64,000 nucleotides of DNA, from assembly GCA_964445305.1 (NCBI GenBank), contig CAYUKK010000005.1, positions 6,614 to 70,613 on the forward strand, given 5' to 3'. The position numbers and the translations under genes are program-made. Position 1 is the stretch's first letter. Every line of letters begins with the position of its first letter. The notes beneath the pieces were generated by a model, which saw only the letters and a program-made list of their open reading frames with translations, made no database searches and was not told the origin of the DNA. This DNA is from an uncultured Eubacteriales bacterium. GTDB lineage: Bacteria > Acidobacteriota > Aminicenantia > Aminicenantales > UBA8522. This document shows positions 45,130 through 52,787 of this stretch, piece by piece.

Positions 45130-45462
45130 ACAGTCCTAGAAGTGCCCCACAAAAAAGGGCGATCTTTCGCTGACTCATTGGATATCTGCCAGAGACATCG
45201 ATTTTCATCTGGATAGGCTAAATTTGGGCTGATTTTTTGGTTACAATGGGGTCTACTCACTAAATGAGAGGAGAATCTCACTCGGAGAGTTTCCAGAGGA
45301 AAGCCCATGGATTGTGCCAGAATCGCCGCAAAATTGCGAGAGCAAATCGTCCAATTCTCGGGGGAACTTTCTTCTGGACTTCCGAAGGGCGGGCCTGGAA
45401 CCCGCGGACAAGCAAAAAGCGCCGGAAATCACCCTGACTTCTCCATTCGGTTAAAGAGAGAA

Positions 45463-45783
45463 TCACAAAAAATATTCAGCGGGGGCCTCGGTGGCCATCA
45501 GAAGCTCCTGATAGACGATGCGGTGGGGGATATAGAGAAGAAGTGTCTCCTGCATCCACTCACTTGACACTCCTCCAGCCTCTCGGCGTGGCAAGAAAGA
45601 CAGAACCCCCGGGTGCGGTAGGAGAAAATCATGAGGCGCTCCACATGGCATTAGGGACAGCGAATGCGGGAAACCCACGACTCGGGTGGCCGCAGTCAGG
45701 CGTCGTTGCGAGGGGCGAAGCGACGCGGGAATCTTGTTTCCCGGGCGAGGCACGACGGGATTACGATGGCTCTGTGGCCTCAT
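45463..45783 (-). pseudogene. remnant of an IS200/IS605-TnpA- or RAYT-like Y1 transposase gene (copy A; C-terminal end only)
   Basis: Ends ...LLLYIPHRIVYQELLMATEAPAEYFL*. This shares the (I/V)VYQE(L/F)L...AEY C-terminus with the copy at 53485-53889 and with fragments at ~51095 and ~60050. No intact HUH motif. Confidence 0.3.
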
Positions 45784-46178
45784 GATGACCTGCGGTCAGT
45801 TCTATAATGGCCGGCCGAAGGAACTCATAATCCTTCTCGAAGCGCGACTTATACCCAGCAAGAAATTTATCCAAGTAATGAAACAACACTCGGTAGAGGA
45901 TCGTCTGTTTGGGGTGCCGAAGGCGATAGTTTCCAACTATGACAGGAGAATGGCCTCAAGAAAGGGGCCATTGTTATGGGGCCAGCCGCTCTTCCTGAAA
46001 AGAGGGAAGGAGTCCCCCTCAGGAAAACAGATTCCAAGCCATAAACTATCCACCTAAATTGACGCCCAGCCTAGAGAATAGACACGCTAGCAGACTAGCG
46101 GAATCGTCATCGGCGTCGAGGCCATAGACGCTAAGGCTGAACGAGGATGAATGCATCGTCATTGAAATCAGGTACAGC

Positions 46179-46739
46179 TTACATGTTTAGCAATAACCTC
46201 CGGAGTTCGTTGCCCAAATCTTGAACCCTAGTCACTTTAAGGGCTTTGCAAAGGGCCTTGATAAAAGGATCGCTCATAACATCTTCTAAAGCCTCAGGTG
46301 AAAAAAGGCTGGGCTCCATAACCACTCCTCGGCTTTGTTCCCCGCACGAATTAATGGGACATGACTTCAGCCCCCTGCAATCCTGTTGGCCGCAACCGTT
46401 TTTATCACAAGATTTTAGAGGGATGGAAAGAGTCGTGCCACTACGCAGCTCGATGAAGAGACCACATTTCTCACCACCACCAGGATCGGGAATAAAGCCG
46501 GTCGGGAGGCCACCGAATTCGCTCAAGAAAATCTCATCCCTCGGGAAAAGTAGCGCTTTGATCATTTTTGCTTTAGTCGATAGAGCGCCGATGCGGACCG
46601 TAGCTTCCAATTCGGCTTTTGAGACTCGGGTTTGAGCTGAGATCAGACCAGCTTTTGTGGCACCCACGCCTGCTAGCCCAGCCGAAAGCTGCGCCAACTT
46701 GCTGAGAACTTCTCTTCTCGTCAATCGATTGTTTTTCAT
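46179..46739 (-). CDS. Tat-signal Cys-pentad-repeat protein, paralog 1 (putative substrate of the adjacent radical SAM/SPASM enzyme)
   Basis: 186 aa. N-terminal RREVLSKLAQLSAGLAGVGA (twin-Arg plus hydrophobic region). Repeats CDKNG/CGQQD/CRGLKS/CPINS/CGEQS. Conserved C-terminal SDPFIKALCKALKVTRVQDLGNELRRLL. Confidence 0.6.
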   Translation of the reverse strand: MKNNRLTRREVLSKLAQLSAGLAGVGATKAGLISAQTRVSKAELEATVRIGALSTKAKMIKALLFPRDEIFLSEFGGLPTGFIPDPGGGEKCGLFIELRSGTTLSIPLKSCDKNGCGQQDCRGLKSCPINSCGEQSRGVVMEPSLFSPEALEDVMSDPFIKALCKALKVTRVQDLGNELRRLLLNM

Positions 46740-46778
46740 TGTTTTCGCCTTTAAAGATTTTTGTCTTATTAGATTCGA

Positions 46779-47336
46779 TTAACGGACCAAAAGCCTTCGG
46801 AGCTCGTAGCTCAGACCTTGCGCTGTTGTCACCTTAAGTTGCCTGCAAAGGGCAAGAATGAACGGGTCGTTCATGATCTGTGATAATTCTCTTTCGGAAA
46901 AAATGTTTGATTCACCCGTGAGCATCCCTTGCTTCGGGCAGTAATTTTCCTCACACCCTGACAACTTCGAGCATTTCTGATCTTCGCACCAGTTATAATC
47001 ACAGTCGGCCAGATTGCCACATTTCTGTTTAGAACACGTCTGGCCCTCGAAAAAAAAGTCACATTTTTCTCCTCCCGGGAATGCAGAGAACATGCCCAGA
47101 GGAACACGGCCGAATTCCGCCTGGAAGACATCACGTTGGGGAAAGAGCAGCACTTTGATCGCCTTAGCCATCGCCGCTTCGGCTTTGACGCCAGTGAGGC
47201 TTTCCAAGTCCTTTATTCCGATTCGCGTCTGAGCCCATGAGCTTGCAGGCTTGAGACTGCTGACGCCGCCAAGCAGAGCCAGAAGCTCCATCAATCGCTT
47301 AAAAGCTTGACGCCTGGTAACCTTTTGATTTCTCAT
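46779..47336 (-). CDS. Tat-signal Cys-pentad-repeat protein, paralog 2
   Basis: 185 aa. TRRQAFKRLMELLALLGGVS. Repeats CSKQK/CGNLAD/CDYNW/CEDQK/CSKLSG/CEENY/CPKQG. C-terminal NDPFILALCRQLKVTTAQGLSYELRRLL. Confidence 0.6.
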   Translation of the reverse strand: MRNQKVTRRQAFKRLMELLALLGGVSSLKPASSWAQTRIGIKDLESLTGVKAEAAMAKAIKVLLFPQRDVFQAEFGRVPLGMFSAFPGGEKCDFFFEGQTCSKQKCGNLADCDYNWCEDQKCSKLSGCEENYCPKQGMLTGESNIFSERELSQIMNDPFILALCRQLKVTTAQGLSYELRRLLVR

Positions 47337-47339
47337 TAT

Positions 47340-48734
47340 TTACCCTCCTTTGAAATTTAGTTTTTTTAGGTTGCGGTCCTTATCGGCTGCCTGATATAGC
47401 TCGACAAGGGCCCAAAACTTTTGCGATATCTCCAATTCTCTGCTCATTCTTTTCAAGCAGTAATAAAAGAAAATATTTTCATCAAGATAATATTTCCAGG
47501 TGTGGCAGCTCACTTTCCCCGTCTTTCCGTAGACATAAGGACATCCTCCCATGCAGATTGGCAGGAGCTTGCAGGAGGCGCATTCGAGGTCAAATGGGTT
47601 TCGCTGCCGCCACCTTTCGAGATTCTTCTGCCAGTCTGCCGAGGCCGACTCGAGGAGGTGTCCGACCTCTGCGTGCGATTCAGCTACCTCGTTCCAGCAT
47701 TTAACAATGCCGCCGCGCGGGGTGATGGCGTAGGCGCATTCATGATCCGCCATACAGAAAATATTTCGGCTTTTCGGCACACCAAAAGAGCGGAAGCCCC
47801 GCCTCGCCATTTCGATAGAGGTTTCGAGCTCGAGCAGGGAAAAGTCGTCCTCGCTTAGGCACCATCCGGAGATATCCTGGCAGACCGATGTATAAGCGTA
47901 CGTACGACCTATGTAGAAGCCAACACGCTCTTTTAATGCCTCGCTCTCCAGGATCTCCATTAGATCTAGAATATGATCCTTGTTTGTTTCATCGACGTTC
48001 ATCCGGATGTGGATTTTGAGCTTCGAAGTCGCCTCATGAATATTTTTTAAAATTCTATGGAATGTTCCTCTGCCGTCGGCGAGCGGCCGCCTCCGGTTAT
48101 GAACCGCGGGGGGCCCATCGAGCGTGACTTGGATATGGCTGATCTTGAGTTGGGCCAGCTTTTCAGCGGTCTTGAGGTCAAGCAGGTATCCATTAGTCAC
48201 CATGTCAGCGCTGTAATCAGCTCCGCAGTTCTGGCAGATTTCGATAAACTTTTCCGAAAGGCGTTCGATTAACGACCGGAAGAGCAACGGCTCGCCCCCA
48301 AACCAGGTGACATTGAGCGATTTATGGCTGAACATCCTTTCTTGGACAAATCGGATAACCGCGTCTTCAACGTTTCCGGCCATCGAGGCCGGGTTCCTCT
48401 CTTGGTAACAATAGACGCACCTGAAATTACAGGCCAGGGTGGGGATGATGGTCATGCTCAGGACGCTCTGATCGGTGCACCCCATCTTGTAGTTCTCCTT
48501 CAAAGAGGCGATTTCATCGGCGTCGTCAGGGATCAGGAATCCGTGGTTGATCAGAGCATTCAGAATTTGCGTTGAATTCTTTGCTTTCCAATCTCGGTTG
48601 GGGTTATATAGAATCCGTTTAGCCAGACCAGCTTCGTAGCCTCTTAAAGCAAGGAGCGAAAGAGTATAGAAATTTAGGAAGAGCGTTGTTCCATTGGGAA
48701 GTCTAAGACAATAGTTATACAAAGAAGCTTTCAA
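47340..48734 (-). CDS. radical SAM / SPASM-domain peptide- or protein-modifying enzyme with a ~95-aa N-terminal RRE-like extension
   Basis: 464 aa. CNFRCVYCYQ (CX3CX2C). C-terminal SPASM cysteines CASCKLLPICMGGCPYV. 3-nt and 7-nt gaps to the flanking paralog genes. Confidence 0.8.
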   Translation of the reverse strand: MKASLYNYCLRLPNGTTLFLNFYTLSLLALRGYEAGLAKRILYNPNRDWKAKNSTQILNALINHGFLIPDDADEIASLKENYKMGCTDQSVLSMTIIPTLACNFRCVYCYQERNPASMAGNVEDAVIRFVQERMFSHKSLNVTWFGGEPLLFRSLIERLSEKFIEICQNCGADYSADMVTNGYLLDLKTAEKLAQLKISHIQVTLDGPPAVHNRRRPLADGRGTFHRILKNIHEATSKLKIHIRMNVDETNKDHILDLMEILESEALKERVGFYIGRTYAYTSVCQDISGWCLSEDDFSLLELETSIEMARRGFRSFGVPKSRNIFCMADHECAYAITPRGGIVKCWNEVAESHAEVGHLLESASADWQKNLERWRQRNPFDLECASCKLLPICMGGCPYVYGKTGKVSCHTWKYYLDENIFFYYCLKRMSRELEISQKFWALVELYQAADKDRNLKKLNFKGG

Positions 48735-48741
48735 AGTCCGG

Positions 48742-49299
48742 CTACCTCCGAGCGCTCATCATGTTGAGGAGCTCCTGCGAAAGCTGTTCAGCCGTAGTGA
48801 CATTGAATTCCTTGAAGAGGGCTTTGACAAACGGGTCGGATTTGTGCATGTTCAAAAAATCCTTTGAGCTTGAATCGATATACATCGTGCAGGTCAGGCC
48901 AGTGCAGTTCTGTTTTGAACAATCATTCTCATCGCAGGACTTCAGACCGCAGGTCTGGTTCACACATCCATTTTTCCCACAGGAAGAAGACTGCATGGAG
49001 GATGGTGTCGGCGAGAAAAAGTCGTCACATTTTTGAATCACCCCAAGATCTCCCGATCCCGCCATCAAGGGTGCTCGTCCGAACTCATTGATATAGATTT
49101 CCCGCGTCCCTATAACCAAGATCTTGAGAGATTTTGTCTCTCTGGATAGGGCCTGTGCTTTGGCCAGAGCATCGAAATTGATGCGTCTCGTCTGAGCGAG
49201 AAAGGCCCGAACCTGGGTAGCACTCAGGCCAGCGGCCAGACCGATGATCTTGATCAGACGAGAGATGGCTTCTCTTCTTGAAAGGTGGTTAACTCTCAT
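48742..49299 (-). CDS. Tat-signal Cys-pentad-repeat protein, paralog 3
   Basis: Start set at MRVNHLSRREAISRLIKIIGLAAGLSA (SD AAGGAG 9 nt upstream), giving 185 aa. Repeats CGKNG/CVNQT/CGLKS/CDEND/CSKQN/CTGLT/C. C-terminal SDPFVKALFKEFNVTTAEQLSQELLNMM. Confidence 0.6.
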   Translation of the reverse strand: MRVNHLSRREAISRLIKIIGLAAGLSATQVRAFLAQTRRINFDALAKAQALSRETKSLKILVIGTREIYINEFGRAPLMAGSGDLGVIQKCDDFFSPTPSSMQSSSCGKNGCVNQTCGLKSCDENDCSKQNCTGLTCTMYIDSSSKDFLNMHKSDPFVKALFKEFNVTTAEQLSQELLNMMSARR

Positions 49300-49789
49300 C
49301 AGAATGCTCCTTGGTGAATCATAATGAATCCTATTAATAAGAGACAGAAAACCGCTTTCCCATCTCACTCGAAGGAGAAAATTTTGTTGATTAGGACTTC
49401 ACAACTATCCACCGTTTGGCTCTGAATTTGCTGCTCGGCCCAGAAGATTAGATATTGGGAAAATGATGATTTGATGCCTCTCCTCGGCAAATATAGGAGA
49501 TTTCTTTTCGGCTGTGGTAACTGGGAGGCATCTTAATTATCATTTTCCTGTTTAGCCATCGCCAAGAGATATGAATCACGAAAAAAATGGATGTCAAAGA
49601 CAATTAAAAGCAGTACCTAGTGGGCGAAAATGCATCATAAGCCGCCTCGGCGCCGGGAAAATGCTGAAAATCAGGGGGACATTTCCTTCTGGTCAAAGGA
49701 AAGATTATGAAAAATAATAGGCCGAAGCCTTGGAGTCCAAGAAGAATCCCGGGAGACCCTATGAGGCGGTGGGGGCTTCGAGGCGATAA

Positions 49790-50150
49790 AGGTCAGGTTG
49801 AGGTGGTTGATGTTCCTGTTCACGACCGCAGTGTCTGTCAAGAAGGCGATGATCTTCATCATGGCGCCCCACTTGGGGCAGGTCGAGGGGTCGATTTCAA
49901 AAACCTTGAGGATCATCTCGGCCCAGCCTCGGCGGGGACGGGCTGGAGCTCCTCTTCGACAATACAAAGAGGAAAGAGTGCGAGGCTTGACTTGCGGACC
50001 TTGCCCTGATGGGCGTTGGCATACAACCCGTAATAACGCACCGCGACCTGACCCTTGTCGGGAATGTGGGAGGCGACCCGGGCGATGAACTCTGGGTAGT
50101 CTATCTGCTTCGCCTCTTGGTTGCTTTCCCCACATCCGTGGCAGGAGCAT
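49790..50150 (-). pseudogene. IS91-family (Y2 HUH) transposase C-terminal fragment, frameshifted and N-terminally truncated
   Basis: Two overlapping frames give ...DYPEFIARVASHIPDKGQVAVRYYGLYANAHQGKVRKS and then ...WAEMILKVFEIDPSTCPKWGAMMKIIAFLTDTAVVNRNINHLNL. This matches the IS91-type C-terminus (RYYGxYxN ... CPxCGxxMxIIAxI ... HLGL). No HUH/Y2 catalytic part remains. Confidence 0.5.
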
Positions 50151-50436
50151 CTGTTGGCGGCTCTTCTTGATGAACCCGGCATCGCTCGCGACGTCCCCGT
50201 CTGGAAGTTCATGTTTCCTGCGACTGGAGGGGAAATCAGATTTTTCGACCCCCTCGGTGTCATTCCCAGGCGTGAGTGAGGGTCCGCCCACCAGGATTTT
50301 TTTCGAGATCTTCTCCCGTTTTTCCAAAGATTTGGAGATTGTTAAGGCGTGACCCTAAAATTTGACAAATTAAATAATTTTAATATGAAATAATTGTATA
50401 ATAAAATTAATATTTCCTTAGTTGCGAGGTTATCAG

Positions 50437-50931
50437 ATGGAAATAGAAAAAATCCGATTTCTCAGAGAGAAGCTCCGTTATATGGAACGGCAGATGAGCG
50501 ACGCCTTCGGCCGCGATTCAGGTTGCTGCGGCCTGACCCTGGCCCAATGCCACAGCCTTCTCGAAGTCGGCTACAAAGGCAAGGTTTCGCTCGTCGAACT
50601 GGCCTCGAGCTTAAGTCTTGACACAAGCACGCTCAGCCGGATGATCCAGGGTCTCGTCCTCCTCGGCTTGGTCAATCGGGAGACAAGCGAGAAGGACCGC
50701 CGTTATGTCGTCATCTCCCTCACGAACCAGGGTCGCACAGCATTCGACGAAATCGAAGCGAGATTCAATTCCTACTTCACCCAGGTCATGGAGTTTATCC
50801 CTGCGGAAAAGCGGGAGGCCGTGATCGAGTCGATTGGGCTCTTCTCCGATGCGGTCAGAAAGCAGAGCGAGTTTTCCAGCTGTTGTCAGGCCGACGACGA
50901 TTTGAGCGAAAACGGAAACGCCACAGGATAA
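50437..50931 (+). CDS. MarR-family transcriptional regulator
   Basis: Start at MEIEKIRFL (SD GAGGT). Winged HTH LVELASSLSLDTSTLSRMIQGLVLLGLVNRETSEKDRRYVVISLTNQGR. Preceded by an ~80-nt AT-rich promoter region (50340-50420). Confidence 0.7.
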   Translation: MEIEKIRFLREKLRYMERQMSDAFGRDSGCCGLTLAQCHSLLEVGYKGKVSLVELASSLSLDTSTLSRMIQGLVLLGLVNRETSEKDRRYVVISLTNQGRTAFDEIEARFNSYFTQVMEFIPAEKREAVIESIGLFSDAVRKQSEFSSCCQADDDLSENGNATG

Positions 50932-51530: not shown

Positions 51531-52787
51531 CTAAAAGATGCGGAAGATGTTGAAACCGACCCGGAAATCGCCGTCTCTCAGACTCAAATCGCCCCCGGGG
51601 AGGTATTGAGCAGCGGTCAGGCCGATCGAATTGGTGACAAAAAACTGGAATACATGCCCGCCAATATTCTTTTCAACGCCCAGTCCCCAGCCAGGATAAC
51701 GATCGTTGTAGCCGGCCAGATGTGGAACCCATTCTGCGATGACGGAGACTTCGTCGAAGACCACGAAGCGCCCTCCGATCCCCAGGGCGAAGGTGCCTTC
51801 CGAATCCGGTTCCCAGAAATTGGTATTGGAGGAAAACGCCGGAACGAGCAGGAGTGAGACCCGGTCGTTGAGCTGGCAGGACAGGCTCACCAGCGCACTG
51901 AGCCGGAACCGGCCTGACCATTCTGCCCCGGGGGGCTCATCCTGGCTAACCAGGCTTCCCCCGGTGTGGAGAGAGGCTGAAAAGGGGAGGGAGCCGTTTC
52001 CTCCCTGTTCAAGGAAGGCCCAATCGACGTTGAATTCCCATTCCTGATAGAGCCTGCTTCGTCCGATCGTCATCATCAGGTCATCTGTTATGCCGTAGCC
52101 GAAGCTGAAGAGGATGTAGGCCGTTCCGTCGAGACCGAAGAAAGAATTCCAACCGCTGGAGACAGCCGGTTGAAAACGGTGCGATATGCGAAACAGGAAA
52201 TCCCCTTTGCCTGGGGTTACGGTTGTCGGTAGGTTGACCAGCCTGGTTCCCCAGAAGACGGGTCTGGAATATCGTCTGGGATTGGAGCTTTGGGCTGGGC
52301 TCTTGCTTTTTAGATTCGGCTGTCTGAACTCGGGGCCGCGGCTAATGAAACCGGGATTGAGAATACCGTTTGCGTCGGTGGAGCTTGCGGCCAGGCTCTT
52401 TATCCACTCCTCGATTTGGCGGATTTGCTCCTCAGTCAAGGGATCATGGTTTAGGGGCATGCGCTTGCCGACAATCCCGGCCGCTCCTTTGACCTTTGCG
52501 ATTAGGTCGCTTTTTTCGGGCGCACCTGGTTCGACAATCTTGAGTTCAGCCTTCTTCAGGCTTGATATCCCGAGAACCGAAGCGAGGAGCGTTTCTTGTT
52601 CCAGGCTTAGGTTGGCCGAAGGGTTTTTGCCCGAATGACAACCTGCGACACTGCAACTTTGCTTCATTATGCTCTTGACTGTGGCCAGAAGATTTGTCGG
52701 AGAATCTCCAGGCCCCTGGCTGTAAAGAGGCGAGCTCAGTGCGAAAAGCACCGTGACCTTGATAATCAACAGGACCTTGGTTTTCAT
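51531..52787 (-). CDS. exported protein with an N-terminal PSCyt1-like cytochrome-c-type domain (CX4CH) fused to a C-terminal beta-barrel (terminal Phe)
   Basis: 418 aa. Signal peptide MKTKVLLIIKVTVLFALSS. MKQSCSVAGCHSG ... GKRMPL ... EEQIRQIEEWIKSLA. Glycine/aromatic-rich C-terminal half ending GFNIFRIF. Confidence 0.5.
   Translation of the reverse strand: MKTKVLLIIKVTVLFALSSPLYSQGPGDSPTNLLATVKSIMKQSCSVAGCHSGKNPSANLSLEQETLLASVLGISSLKKAELKIVEPGAPEKSDLIAKVKGAAGIVGKRMPLNHDPLTEEQIRQIEEWIKSLAASSTDANGILNPGFISRGPEFRQPNLKSKSPAQSSNPRRYSRPVFWGTRLVNLPTTVTPGKGDFLFRISHRFQPAVSSGWNSFFGLDGTAYILFSFGYGITDDLMMTIGRSRLYQEWEFNVDWAFLEQGGNGSLPFSASLHTGGSLVSQDEPPGAEWSGRFRLSALVSLSCQLNDRVSLLLVPAFSSNTNFWEPDSEGTFALGIGGRFVVFDEVSVIAEWVPHLAGYNDRYPGWGLGVEKNIGGHVFQFFVTNSIGLTAAQYLPGGDLSLRDGDFRVGFNIFRIF

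Follow-up and report, generated by a model that had tools for sequence, protein, structure and literature searches.

Comparable known systems and the source locus

In the PapA/PapB system (freyrasin), one radical-SAM (rSAM)/SPASM enzyme builds a series of short in-line Cys rings over six tandem CX3D motifs, linking Cys to Asp C-beta or Glu C-gamma, carbons that lie beside a carbonyl (PMC9413430). The streptococcal NxxcA/NxxcB pair, compared here by its description, forms a Cys-Asn beta-thioether in a single N-x-x-C motif of a short peptide, and NxxcB also accepts Gln, Asp or Ala in place of Asn, which makes Asn and Gln plausible acceptors in general (PMC9389541). The rSAM/SPASM enzyme QhpD introduces several C-beta and C-gamma Cys thioethers into a protein subunit, QhpC (PMC10114670). 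Bufferins are Cys-modified metallophore RiPPs in which a general-secretion (Sec) signal peptide replaces the dedicated leader, protease and exporter (PMC11626156). The maturases most similar to the enzyme described below are those of the CefA/CefB, TIGR04463 and Clo7bot systems, which adjoin genes for Cys-rich precursors. A CefA-annotated protein encoded beside a TIGR04463 maturase on a Methylomagnum plasmid carries C-G-A-D-A repeats, with Cys at every fifth residue and a conserved Asp at +3 from one Cys and -2 from the next. The Clo7bot peptides of a Paraclostridium reference locus are 41-53 aa long, with an MKFIKKP leader and Cys at every fourth residue. The literature searched did not mention the Cys-every-fifth, Clo7bot or TIGR04463 families.

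The locus studied here lies in a 64,000-nt stretch of DNA (the window). The part shown, positions 46,179-49,299, contains three paralogous precursor genes and a radical-SAM gene, tightly packed with gaps of 7, 3 and 39 nt. The features are as follows.

49536..49565, minus strand: weak sigma-70-like promoter match upstream of paralog 3 (consensus match only, 9/12 positions)
48742..49299, minus strand: paralog 3 precursor gene, 185 aa; family profile match E = 1e-53
49192..49299, minus strand: RR-containing, Tat-like N-terminus of paralog 3, residues 1-36, MRVNHLSRREAISRLIKIIGLAAGLSATQVRAFLAQ
48877..48981, minus strand: paralog 3 Cys-repeat core, residues 107-141
47340..48734, minus strand: radical-SAM/SPASM maturase gene, 464 aa, TTG start
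46779..47336, minus strand: paralog 2 precursor gene, 185 aa; matches the family profile
47229-47336, minus strand: RR-containing N-terminal segment of paralog 2, equivalent to paralog 3 residues 1-36
46926..47036, minus strand: paralog 2 Cys-repeat core, residues 101-137
46179..46739, minus strand: paralog 1 precursor gene, 186 aa; matches the family profile
46632-46739, minus strand: RR-containing N-terminal segment of paralog 1, equivalent to paralog 3 residues 1-36
46332..46409, minus strand: paralog 1 Cys-repeat core, residues 111-136
46085..46100, minus strand: terminator-like hairpin about 80 nt downstream of paralog 1 (consensus match only)

The start of paralog 3 was placed at the ATG at 49299, which has AAGGAG upstream; the mechanical ORF list runs on to a GTG at 49368. 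The paralog 1 protein was found in identical form on 5 metagenome contigs.

The locus resembles the PapA/PapB system in its single rSAM/SPASM enzyme and tandem motifs. However, PapA is a short peptide with one acceptor type at +4, whereas the precursors here are 185-aa proteins with a predicted folded helical domain, in which N, Q and L/F follow a strict cycle and the putative acceptor is at +3/-2. The NxxcA/NxxcB pair likewise lacks a three-unit cycle. The CefA-type repeat has the +3/-2 register in common with our precursors but is a uniform pentapeptide without an N/Q/L super-period. Against the CefA model (NF038108; cut-off 30 bits), paralogs 1 and 3 scored 16.5 and 21.3 bits and paralog 2 gave no match; 17/40 family members matched it weakly at E <= 10, the best with E = 1.5e-5. 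The precursors also differ from the Clo7bot peptides in their length of 185 aa and their 5-5-6 Cys spacing. Bufferins are modified by an MNIO rather than an rSAM enzyme, their Cys residues become thiooxazoles without a crosslink, and their signal is of the Sec rather than the RR type. Unlike the QhpC/QhpD system, none of the loci examined had dehydrogenase subunits, a QhpE protease or an exporter. QhpC is not known to have a periodic motif.

The N/Q/L repeat in the three paralogs

The first-pass annotation had quoted the Cys strings of the three paralogs exactly; all three ORFs are on the minus strand, with their cores within the region it had assigned to the repeat. The units are CDKNG CGQQD CRGLKS CPINS CGEQS in paralog 1, CSKQK CGNLAD CDYNW CEDQK CSKLSG CEENY CPKQG in paralog 2 and CGKNG CVNQT CGLKS CDEND CSKQN CTGLT CTMYI in paralog 3. 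The residues at +3 from successive cysteines thus read NQLNQ, QLNQLNQ and NQKNQLY. The reported cycling of N, Q and L at +3 was present in all three paralogs, with one exception: in paralog 3, the third unit lacks one residue, which puts its L at +2 and leaves it at -3 from the next Cys. The super-repeat, given earlier as about 15-16 residues, is 16 residues long in paralogs 1 and 2 (Cys spacing 5-5-6) and 15 in paralog 3 (5-5-5), where seven Cys are exactly 5 apart.

The phasing was seldom reproduced by chance. When the Cys were held fixed and the other residues of the region were shuffled 200,000 times, with i/i+3 identity and distinct triples as the statistic, shuffles equalled the observed phasing at frequencies of 1e-5 for paralog 2, 0.004-0.005 for paralog 1 and 0.015-0.02 for paralog 3. 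Permutation of the +3 residues alone gave 0.009, 0.065 and 0.048, respectively. This was the shuffling test that the first-pass annotation had named, and the annotation had rightly held that simple low complexity does not account for such a pattern. Tandem Repeats Finder detected no DNA-level tandem repeat, so the periodicity is kept at the protein level and does not reflect recent duplication. An Rfam search gave no match. The 16-residue CxxNx-CxxQx-CxxLxx repeat carried by the three paralogs is real and strongly conserved.

Conservation across the family

Word-indexed protein searches returned only 2 and 7 proteins. The family was revealed by an exhaustive search of 1.84 billion cluster representatives, 72 of which share the RR-containing N-terminus, the helical flanks and the Cys core. 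Family members are 185-270 residues long. Their core follows the consensus C-[GD]-[DG]-N-x-C-x-[DG]-Q-x-C-[PG]-x-[LF]-x-[SDG]-C, which as a rule occurs twice, and most of the 72 representatives have the canonical N5-Q5-L6-N5-Q5-L6 arrangement of two super-repeats (about 32 residues). In some members the number of super-repeats is 1.5 or 3; the extra units, L or Q-L placed before N, are always in phase with the cycle. Where an N unit has six residues, the N stays at -2 of the next Cys, and terminal units keep C-x-x-N or C-x-x-Q without a following Cys.

Among 52 aligned members, the first N and the first Q were present in 52/52 and were as conserved as the Cys, against a mean column identity of about 18%; N and Q were never swapped at these two sites. 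The second N occurred in 48/52 members, the second Q was found in 47/52, and the two L positions were L, F or M in 41/52 and 43/52. Over the 361 successive-unit transitions in 73 family proteins, 234 followed the forward cycle N>Q>L>N, compared with 104 +/- 9 after shuffling of the unit order (0/20,000 shuffles reached 234), a count that measures conservation and not independent events because the sequences are related. The L>Q transition was never seen. The periodicity is thus real and under selection.

Neither Pfam nor NCBIfam has a model for the family, no paper in the literature searched describes it, and a plasmid collection contained no homologue of the precursor. Since no model exists, the family has probably been missed by genome mining tuned to short precursors.

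Structure prediction

The strict period of 15-16 residues, the enrichment of Gly, Asp and Pro at turn-like positions and the single hydrophobic L/F in each repeat could all suit a structural solenoid, with a triangular coil of 16 residues, an Asn ladder, a Gln ladder, a Leu core and Cys for stabilization. Insect antifreeze beta-helices, which are braced by disulfides, provide a model for such a fold. One of the two readings proposed earlier was likewise a solenoid or beta-helix-like stack with ladders of Asn and Gln, with structure prediction as its check. We ran AlphaFold2 twice, with 40- and 52-sequence alignments, and one query was a member with three perfect 15-residue repeats. In both runs, the Cys core had pLDDT values from below 50 to about 54, with scattered beta bridges only and no confident stack of coils. 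One of these bridges, in the low-confidence model of paralog 2, joined residues 114-115 and 131-132 of the two N units, a weak sign of stacking from one model. The usual core moreover has two super-repeats only. We consider a solenoid quite improbable on these grounds, and the predictions did not bear out the earlier proposal, although a stack that formed after modification is possible.

In contrast to the core, the flanks (residues 41-80 and 145-185) were predicted with pLDDT above 90 and folded together into one helical domain. In the models, the core is therefore a loop held between its ends. Its unstructured state fits a loop that gains shape only after modification. The flank motifs 'AAGLSxxEL' and 'FNVTTxxxL' had also been considered as Nif11- or NHLP-like leader domains; Pfam gave no support for this in 40 members at E <= 10, and the idea was set aside.

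The linked radical-SAM/SPASM enzyme

Five independent loci each contained 1-3 family genes with one rSAM/SPASM gene adjoining (the window, L005; L001; L002-4; L008; and L009-10). The enzyme of the window matched Pfam Radical_SAM at 1e-16 and was 43-48% identical to its orthologues in the four other loci. It has the cluster motif CNFRCVYC and nine invariant Cys within residues 285-410 of the C-terminal half. It thus has the CxxxCxxC motif and the Cys-rich SPASM-type half expected of a thioether RiPP enzyme, and the Cys-containing precursor expected beside such an enzyme was seen in all five loci.

Profile comparisons placed the enzyme nearest to the Clo7bot maturase (TIGR04334; 315.5 bits, cut-off 600) and TIGR04463 (311.5 bits, cut-off 525), followed by CefB (NF038107; 212.9 bits, cut-off 600), PapB (135 bits, cut-off 340) and QhpD (68.7 bits, cut-off 453). 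The nearest solved structure was that of the ranthipeptide synthase CteB (5WGG; profile E = 3e-21), aligned through the SPASM region. This kinship to Clo7bot, TIGR04463, CefB, PapB and CteB points to thioether chemistry, but the scores of the enzyme lie far under all curated cut-offs, and it may catalyse a different reaction. The N-terminal extension of about 90 aa aligned to the Clo7bot profile from residue 2 and had no Pfam match to a PqqD/RRE domain at E <= 1. No dedicated protease or exporter was conserved across the loci.

A scan of 185,579 GTDB species genomes by enzyme alignment did not find the family. The closest enzyme relatives there were 32% identical, and none of the 80 loci checked by profile search of six-frame ORFs encoded a family member. 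The top relatives were themselves sub-threshold matches to TIGR04463, Clo7bot or CefB.

Proposed crosslinking and the candidate acceptor residues

In this rare, undescribed family, the repeat most likely provides evenly spaced sites at which the enzyme makes sulfur-to-carbon crosslinks. Crosslink acceptor sites were the other reading offered in the first-pass annotation, and gene context and enzyme kinship led us to prefer it to the solenoid, the chemistry itself being drawn from homology and context. In its joint form, in which the enzyme makes Cys thioethers to in-register N/Q/L acceptors and Tat export possibly follows, we adopt this reading tentatively, judging its chance to be a little short of even.

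The rSAM/SPASM enzyme would bind the precursor in the cytoplasm, and its auxiliary Fe-S clusters would hold a Cys thiolate. The 5'-deoxyadenosyl radical would then abstract a hydrogen from the conserved residue at +3 of that Cys (-2 or -3 of the next), and a C-S bond would form. Repetition along the array would produce a chain of small thioether rings with the programmed acceptor order Asn, Gln, Leu/Phe. By analogy with PapB, the link would probably form at C-beta of Asn and C-gamma of Gln, both beside the amide carbonyl, and at C-gamma of Leu or C-beta of Phe; a radical on any of these carbons would be stabilised. The partner of each Cys could be the residue at +3 or the one at -2, and the sequence fits either. 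The C-G-A-D-A register of the CefA-annotated protein may serve as a precedent for acceptors placed at +3/-2. For the chemistry, NxxcB, PapB and QhpD provide precedents (PMC9389541, PMC9413430, PMC10114670). Leu would be an unusual acceptor for a non-alpha link, and we know of no natural example of a Cys-Gln or a Cys-Leu link.

The strictness with which N and Q are kept apart at the first two sites counts against the acceptor reading, since it exceeds the acceptor tolerance of NxxcB and PapB (PMC9389541, PMC9413430) and could reflect a structural or recognition role. Under that alternative, N, Q and L would only fix the conformation or the register of the enzyme or serve its recognition, and the thioethers would go to other carbons, as C-alpha (sactionine) links to neighbouring residues or as long-range links between the two super-repeats. 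The canonical core of exactly two super-repeats could pair mutually, and the beta bridge between the paralog 2 N units would agree with such pairing. However, the number of super-repeats is not always two (1.5 or 3 in some members), and in the C-G-A-D-A repeats the corresponding +3/-2 position is held by Asp, an established acceptor of the PapB type. In addition, the known hairpin sactipeptides are built from two mirrored halves, one of donors and one of acceptors, and not from direct repeats. We regard this alternative as unlikely, though it deserves some weight.

Radical-SAM/SPASM maturases are a main source of new peptide crosslinking chemistry and of tools for enzymatic stapling. With three different, invariant candidate acceptors in a fixed order beside each Cys, and with a protein-sized scaffold in place of a short leader-core peptide, the family is a clean, testable case for them. 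Should the acceptors prove to be N, Q and L/F, a single enzyme would be shown to build thioethers of three kinds in programmed order, Cys-Gln and Cys-Leu links among them.

The Tat-like N-terminus

The twin arginines R8 and R9 were at least 90% conserved in both the 40- and the 52-sequence sets. The Tat pathway carries folded cargo, and the crosslinked protein may leave the cytoplasm by this route. The uncharged stretch after RR was 14, 11 and 13 residues long in paralogs 1, 2 and 3 (the 13 counted by eye), compared with 15-19 residues in seven E. coli Tat signals. Family-wide, it measured 11 residues in 26/55 members and 13 or more in 23/55, and the short stretches were often followed by an acidic residue. 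At E <= 1, neither TIGR01409 nor PF10518 matched a paralog of the window; TIGR01409 was matched weakly by 3/40 family members (best E = 0.021). No paper in the literature searched linked SPASM enzymes to precursors with Tat signals. The Tat reading is weak; export of the family proteins by this pathway is possible. Should the N-terminus prove to function as a Tat signal, it would illustrate a way of exporting crosslinked products that needs no dedicated transporter. The fullest version is a new class in which a single SPASM enzyme writes a programmed, repeating triad of chemically different thioethers (Cys-Asn, Cys-Gln and Cys-Leu/Phe) into a loop on a split helical scaffold, and the stapled, folded product is then exported by Tat with a signal that is part of the precursor. 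This version seems unlikely to hold in all its parts. If true, it would provide the first case of an rSAM RiPP-like product routed through Tat, and also the first with a fixed multi-acceptor code.

The dense Cys and the RR N-terminus could also belong to a protein exported by Tat whose Cys array binds metal or Fe-S clusters, with free thiolates as the functional groups; the rSAM enzyme would then modify the repeat in another way or not at all. Tat commonly exports cofactor-loaded proteins. Bufferins, as metallophore RiPPs with a signal peptide, would offer a parallel (PMC11626156). However, metal ligation needs no invariant in-register N and Q, and no metal-handling genes were conserved in the loci. 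We therefore consider this explanation very unlikely. The total Cys number also varied among the three paralogs (7, 9 and 8), and the nearest relatives of the enzyme were Cys-crosslinking maturases.

Cys-repeat genes and their periodicity

The three Cys-repeat precursor genes and the radical-SAM (rSAM) gene, whose product has the Cys-rich C-terminal domain type called SPASM, lie head to tail on the minus strand, with intergenic gaps of 7, 3 and 39 nt:

48742-49299, minus strand, paralog 3 (185 aa)
47340-48734, minus strand, radical-SAM/SPASM gene (464 aa, TTG start)
46779-47336, minus strand, paralog 2 (185 aa)
46179-46739, minus strand, paralog 1 (186 aa)

The mechanical ORF list opened paralog 3 at a GTG at 49368. 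We took the ATG at 49299 as its start, because AAGGAG precedes it and the protein is then collinear with paralogs 1 and 2. The pairwise identity among the three proteins was 34-41%.

The first-pass annotation had proposed that the residue at +3 after successive Cys residues cycles through N, Q and L, forming a super-repeat of about 15-16 residues. The Cys strings it quoted were all recovered without a mismatch. The third unit of paralog 3 is one residue short and carries its L at +2; this L is still three residues ahead of the next Cys. Read in order, the +3 residues are NQLNQ (paralog 1), QLNQLNQ (paralog 2) and NQKNQLY (paralog 3). The proposed repeat length also held, with the Cys residues spaced 5-5-6 (paralogs 1 and 2) or 5-5-5 (paralog 3). 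One example of a minimal core is CDKNGCGQQDCRGLKSC. We then kept the Cys residues fixed and shuffled the rest of the repeat region, the criterion being i/i+3 identity with distinct consecutive triples. The observed phasing arose at a frequency of 1e-5 for paralog 2, 0.004 for paralog 1 and 0.015 for paralog 3, and when the +3 residues alone were permuted, at 0.009, 0.065 and 0.048, respectively. Because the paralogs descend from a common ancestor, the three results are not independent of one another; paralog 2 by itself is enough to reject chance. No DNA-level tandem repeat was found, indicating that the periodicity is held at the protein level.

Conservation across the protein family

Searching 1.84 billion cluster representatives exhaustively with a profile, we obtained 72 proteins at E <= 0.001, of which 54 reached E <= 1e-10; most have 180-300 residues. 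The shared architecture starts with a nearly invariant RR followed by 'A-x-A-A-G-L-S', and continues with a 'KALKVLL...VFxNEFGR' segment, a variable linker in which one Cys is conserved, then the Cys repeats and a C-terminal 'DP[FY][IV]QxLxxxFNVTTxxxL' segment. In one member, P0055 (179 aa), the N-terminus is replaced by a segment that by eye resembles the beginning of a glycoside hydrolase family 1 enzyme (MAKKLVFPKDFLWGTATAGHQVEGN...); this protein is probably an assembly or gene-call chimera.

We classified the inter-Cys units by which residue lies two or three positions ahead of the next Cys, and the canonical core was N5-Q5-L6-N5-Q5-L6. The transition counts were 99/114 for N to Q, 71/104 for Q to L, 64/95 for L to N and 0 for L to Q, and forward-cycle steps made up 234 of 361, versus 104 +/- 9 in unit-order shuffles. 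In the 52 aligned members, whose mean column identity is about 18%, the first N and first Q were as invariant as the Cys residues, and no replacement of N by Q or Q by N occurred at these two sites. The second N was kept in 48/52 and the second Q in 47/52, while the L positions were L, F or M in 41/52 and 43/52. Additional units were always in phase with the cycle, appearing as L or Q-L before the first N. In six-residue N units the N stayed two residues ahead of the next Cys, and terminal units retained C-x-x-N or C-x-x-Q with no Cys after them. The N/Q/L observation is correct and significant. The invariant Cys residues could instead form a metal-binding array, a reading that we consider quite improbable; the N and Q residues are conserved alongside them.

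A minority subfamily (P0016, P0018, P0020, P0021, P0025-P0027, P0029, P0032, P0035 and P0038) lacks N/Q/L and has C-x-x-L-x-C-G-x-x-V-C-N-x-L-x-C followed by other Cys clusters, with the N- and C-terminal flanks of the family kept. These proteins may use a different acceptor code. A solitary Cys (C92/C91), 9-19 residues ahead of the repeat, occurred in every one of 40 sequences and in at least 90% of 52. In paralogs 1-3 it is encoded at 46464-46466, 47061-47063 and 49027-49029, and aromatic residues follow it in C-D-F-F-F, C-G-L-F-I and C-D-D-F-F. This Cys may serve as an additional site of modification or as a ligand to a cluster.

Linkage to the rSAM/SPASM enzyme

The exact window proteins occurred on five metagenome contigs. 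At four further independent loci (L001, L002-4, L008 and L009-10), one to three family genes lie beside one rSAM/SPASM gene, whose product is 43-48% identical to the window enzyme. Linkage was read at the window and these four loci; roughly 60 of the family members are representative sequences only. The best enzyme relative found in 185,579 GTDB species genomes was 32% identical, none of the 80 loci kept from that scan (0/80) contained a family member, and the plasmid collection held no precursor homologue. The N/Q/L cycle marks the core motif of these putative radical-SAM substrates, a rare and unannotated family.

The enzyme has a CNFRCVYC motif and nine invariant Cys residues in its C-terminal half, and its N-terminus is extended by about 90 residues; no PqqD/RRE match was found in Pfam. 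Its NCBIfam scores lay below the cut-offs (in parentheses) for the Clo7bot maturase, 315 bits (600), TIGR04463, 311 (525), CefB, 213 (600), and PapB, 135 (340); the geopeptide maturase model scored 182, and the QhpD and SCIFF maturase models far lower. We therefore regard it as a new branch of Cys-rich-peptide maturases outside the named families. The nearest solved structure was that of the ranthipeptide synthase CteB.

Two comparators were examined. A true Clo7bot locus of Paraclostridium encodes seven annotated Clo7bot peptides of 41-53 residues and two unannotated small ORFs, with Cys at every fourth residue. On the Methylomagnum ishizawai plasmid NZ_AP019784.1 (1870-3909 of the extracted locus L092), a 680-aa protein annotated by NCBI as CefA has long N-terminal globular domains and a C-terminus of about 35 C-G-A-[DA]-A pentapeptides. 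Its gene adjoins that of a TIGR04463 rSAM maturase, followed by a RiPP maturation radical SAM C-methyltransferase and a 2OG-Fe(II) oxygenase. The protein resembles an rSAM substrate of protein size, here from a cultured methanotroph; the example shows that Cys-repeat cores can sit on large proteins, and it would offer an experimentally accessible comparator. The Asp of its Cys-every-fifth repeat occupies the exact register of N, Q and L in the window family. The three-unit super-period of the window family is absent from both comparators. The literature searched had no mention of Cys-every-fifth repeats, Clo7bot or TIGR04463.

Predicted structure of the Cys core

We ran AlphaFold2 on paralog 2 with 40 sequences and on P0047, a family member with three perfect 15-residue repeats, with 52, and the results agreed. 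The segments flanking the Cys core (residues 41-80 and 145-185 in paralog 2) were helical with pLDDT above 90, so that a split helical scaffold is predicted around the core. The core itself had pLDDT from below 50 to about 54, with scattered strands of two to five residues. The first-pass suggestion that the repeats stack as a structural solenoid therefore gains nothing from either run, and we consider it unlikely; a core fold might arise only after modification.

Proposed modification

Maturation of Cys-rich precursors by rSAM/SPASM enzymes is an already known type of system, to which this one belongs. The enzyme would crosslink each Cys to its conserved neighbor (N, Q or L/F), probably at Asn C-beta, Gln C-gamma, and Leu C-gamma or Phe C-beta, and the product would be a chain of small thioether rings. 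We favor this reading tentatively, at somewhat less than an even chance. PapB forms six in-line Cys-Asp C-beta links in CX3D motifs, shifts to C-gamma with Glu in place of Asp, and accepts spacings of 0-6 (PMC9413430). NxxcB forms a beta-thioether between Cys and Asn and also accepts Gln, Asp and Ala (PMC9389541), and QhpD crosslinks the protein subunit QhpC (PMC10114670). Alternatively, N, Q and L may be register or recognition residues with the acceptor carbons elsewhere, a reading that we rate as less probable. New here are the putative three-residue acceptor code, the protein-sized scaffolded precursor and the RR-type N-terminus.

Possible export

In the window paralogs, the conserved RR is followed by 11-14 uncharged residues (13 in paralog 3, counted by eye), a basic residue and an 'A-Q' junction, and these N-termini look Tat-like. 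However, the window proteins did not match Tat signal models, and only 3/40 family members matched one weakly. The uncharged stretch was 11 residues in 26/55 members, often with an acidic residue next; in seven E. coli Tat signals it spans 15-19 residues. Judged on these features, Tat export of the family proteins has roughly even odds. It would be mechanistically sensible, since a crosslinked folded product cannot thread through Sec and the loci have no dedicated exporter. No protease or ABC exporter was conserved across the loci. Two related loci have an MFS transporter gene immediately after the rSAM gene (L001, 12292-13572; L009, 4235-5473). This gene is absent from the window locus, L002 and L008, and may have an optional role in export or immunity. 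Bufferins are a precedent for general-secretion signals on Cys-modified RiPP precursors (PMC11626156), and no paper in the literature searched linked SPASM enzymes with Tat-signal precursors.

Genomic surroundings

The following features lie upstream of paralog 3:

49671-50327, especially 49913-50263, minus strand, IS91-type transposase remnant (Pfam Y2_Tnp, E = 3e-7) in overlapping frameshifted ORFs
50422-50931, plus strand, MarR-family regulator gene, about 1.1 kb upstream of paralog 3 and past the remnant

The decayed remnant corresponds to the C-terminal part of the transposase and directly abuts the rSAM locus, and G+C is 0.49 across 46-50 kb versus 0.53-0.58 around it, a drop that suggests horizontal acquisition of the locus. 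Housekeeping genes (NfeD, SPFH protein, SPOR protein, Lnt and PrfB) lie downstream. The stretch of about 1 kb that separates the NfeD gene from paralog 1 (45130-46178) contains short overlapping ORFs in several frames, with no ORF matching a family and no Rfam match; a decayed element and a regulatory region are both conceivable. Across the whole 64-kb window, the Rfam scan found no family at gathering score, tRNAs included. The 418-aa product of the minus-strand gene at 51531-52787 contains a DUF5777 membrane beta-barrel domain (E = 2e-54), and 'CSVAGCH' in its N-terminal part is a possible atypical heme-binding C-x4-CH motif.
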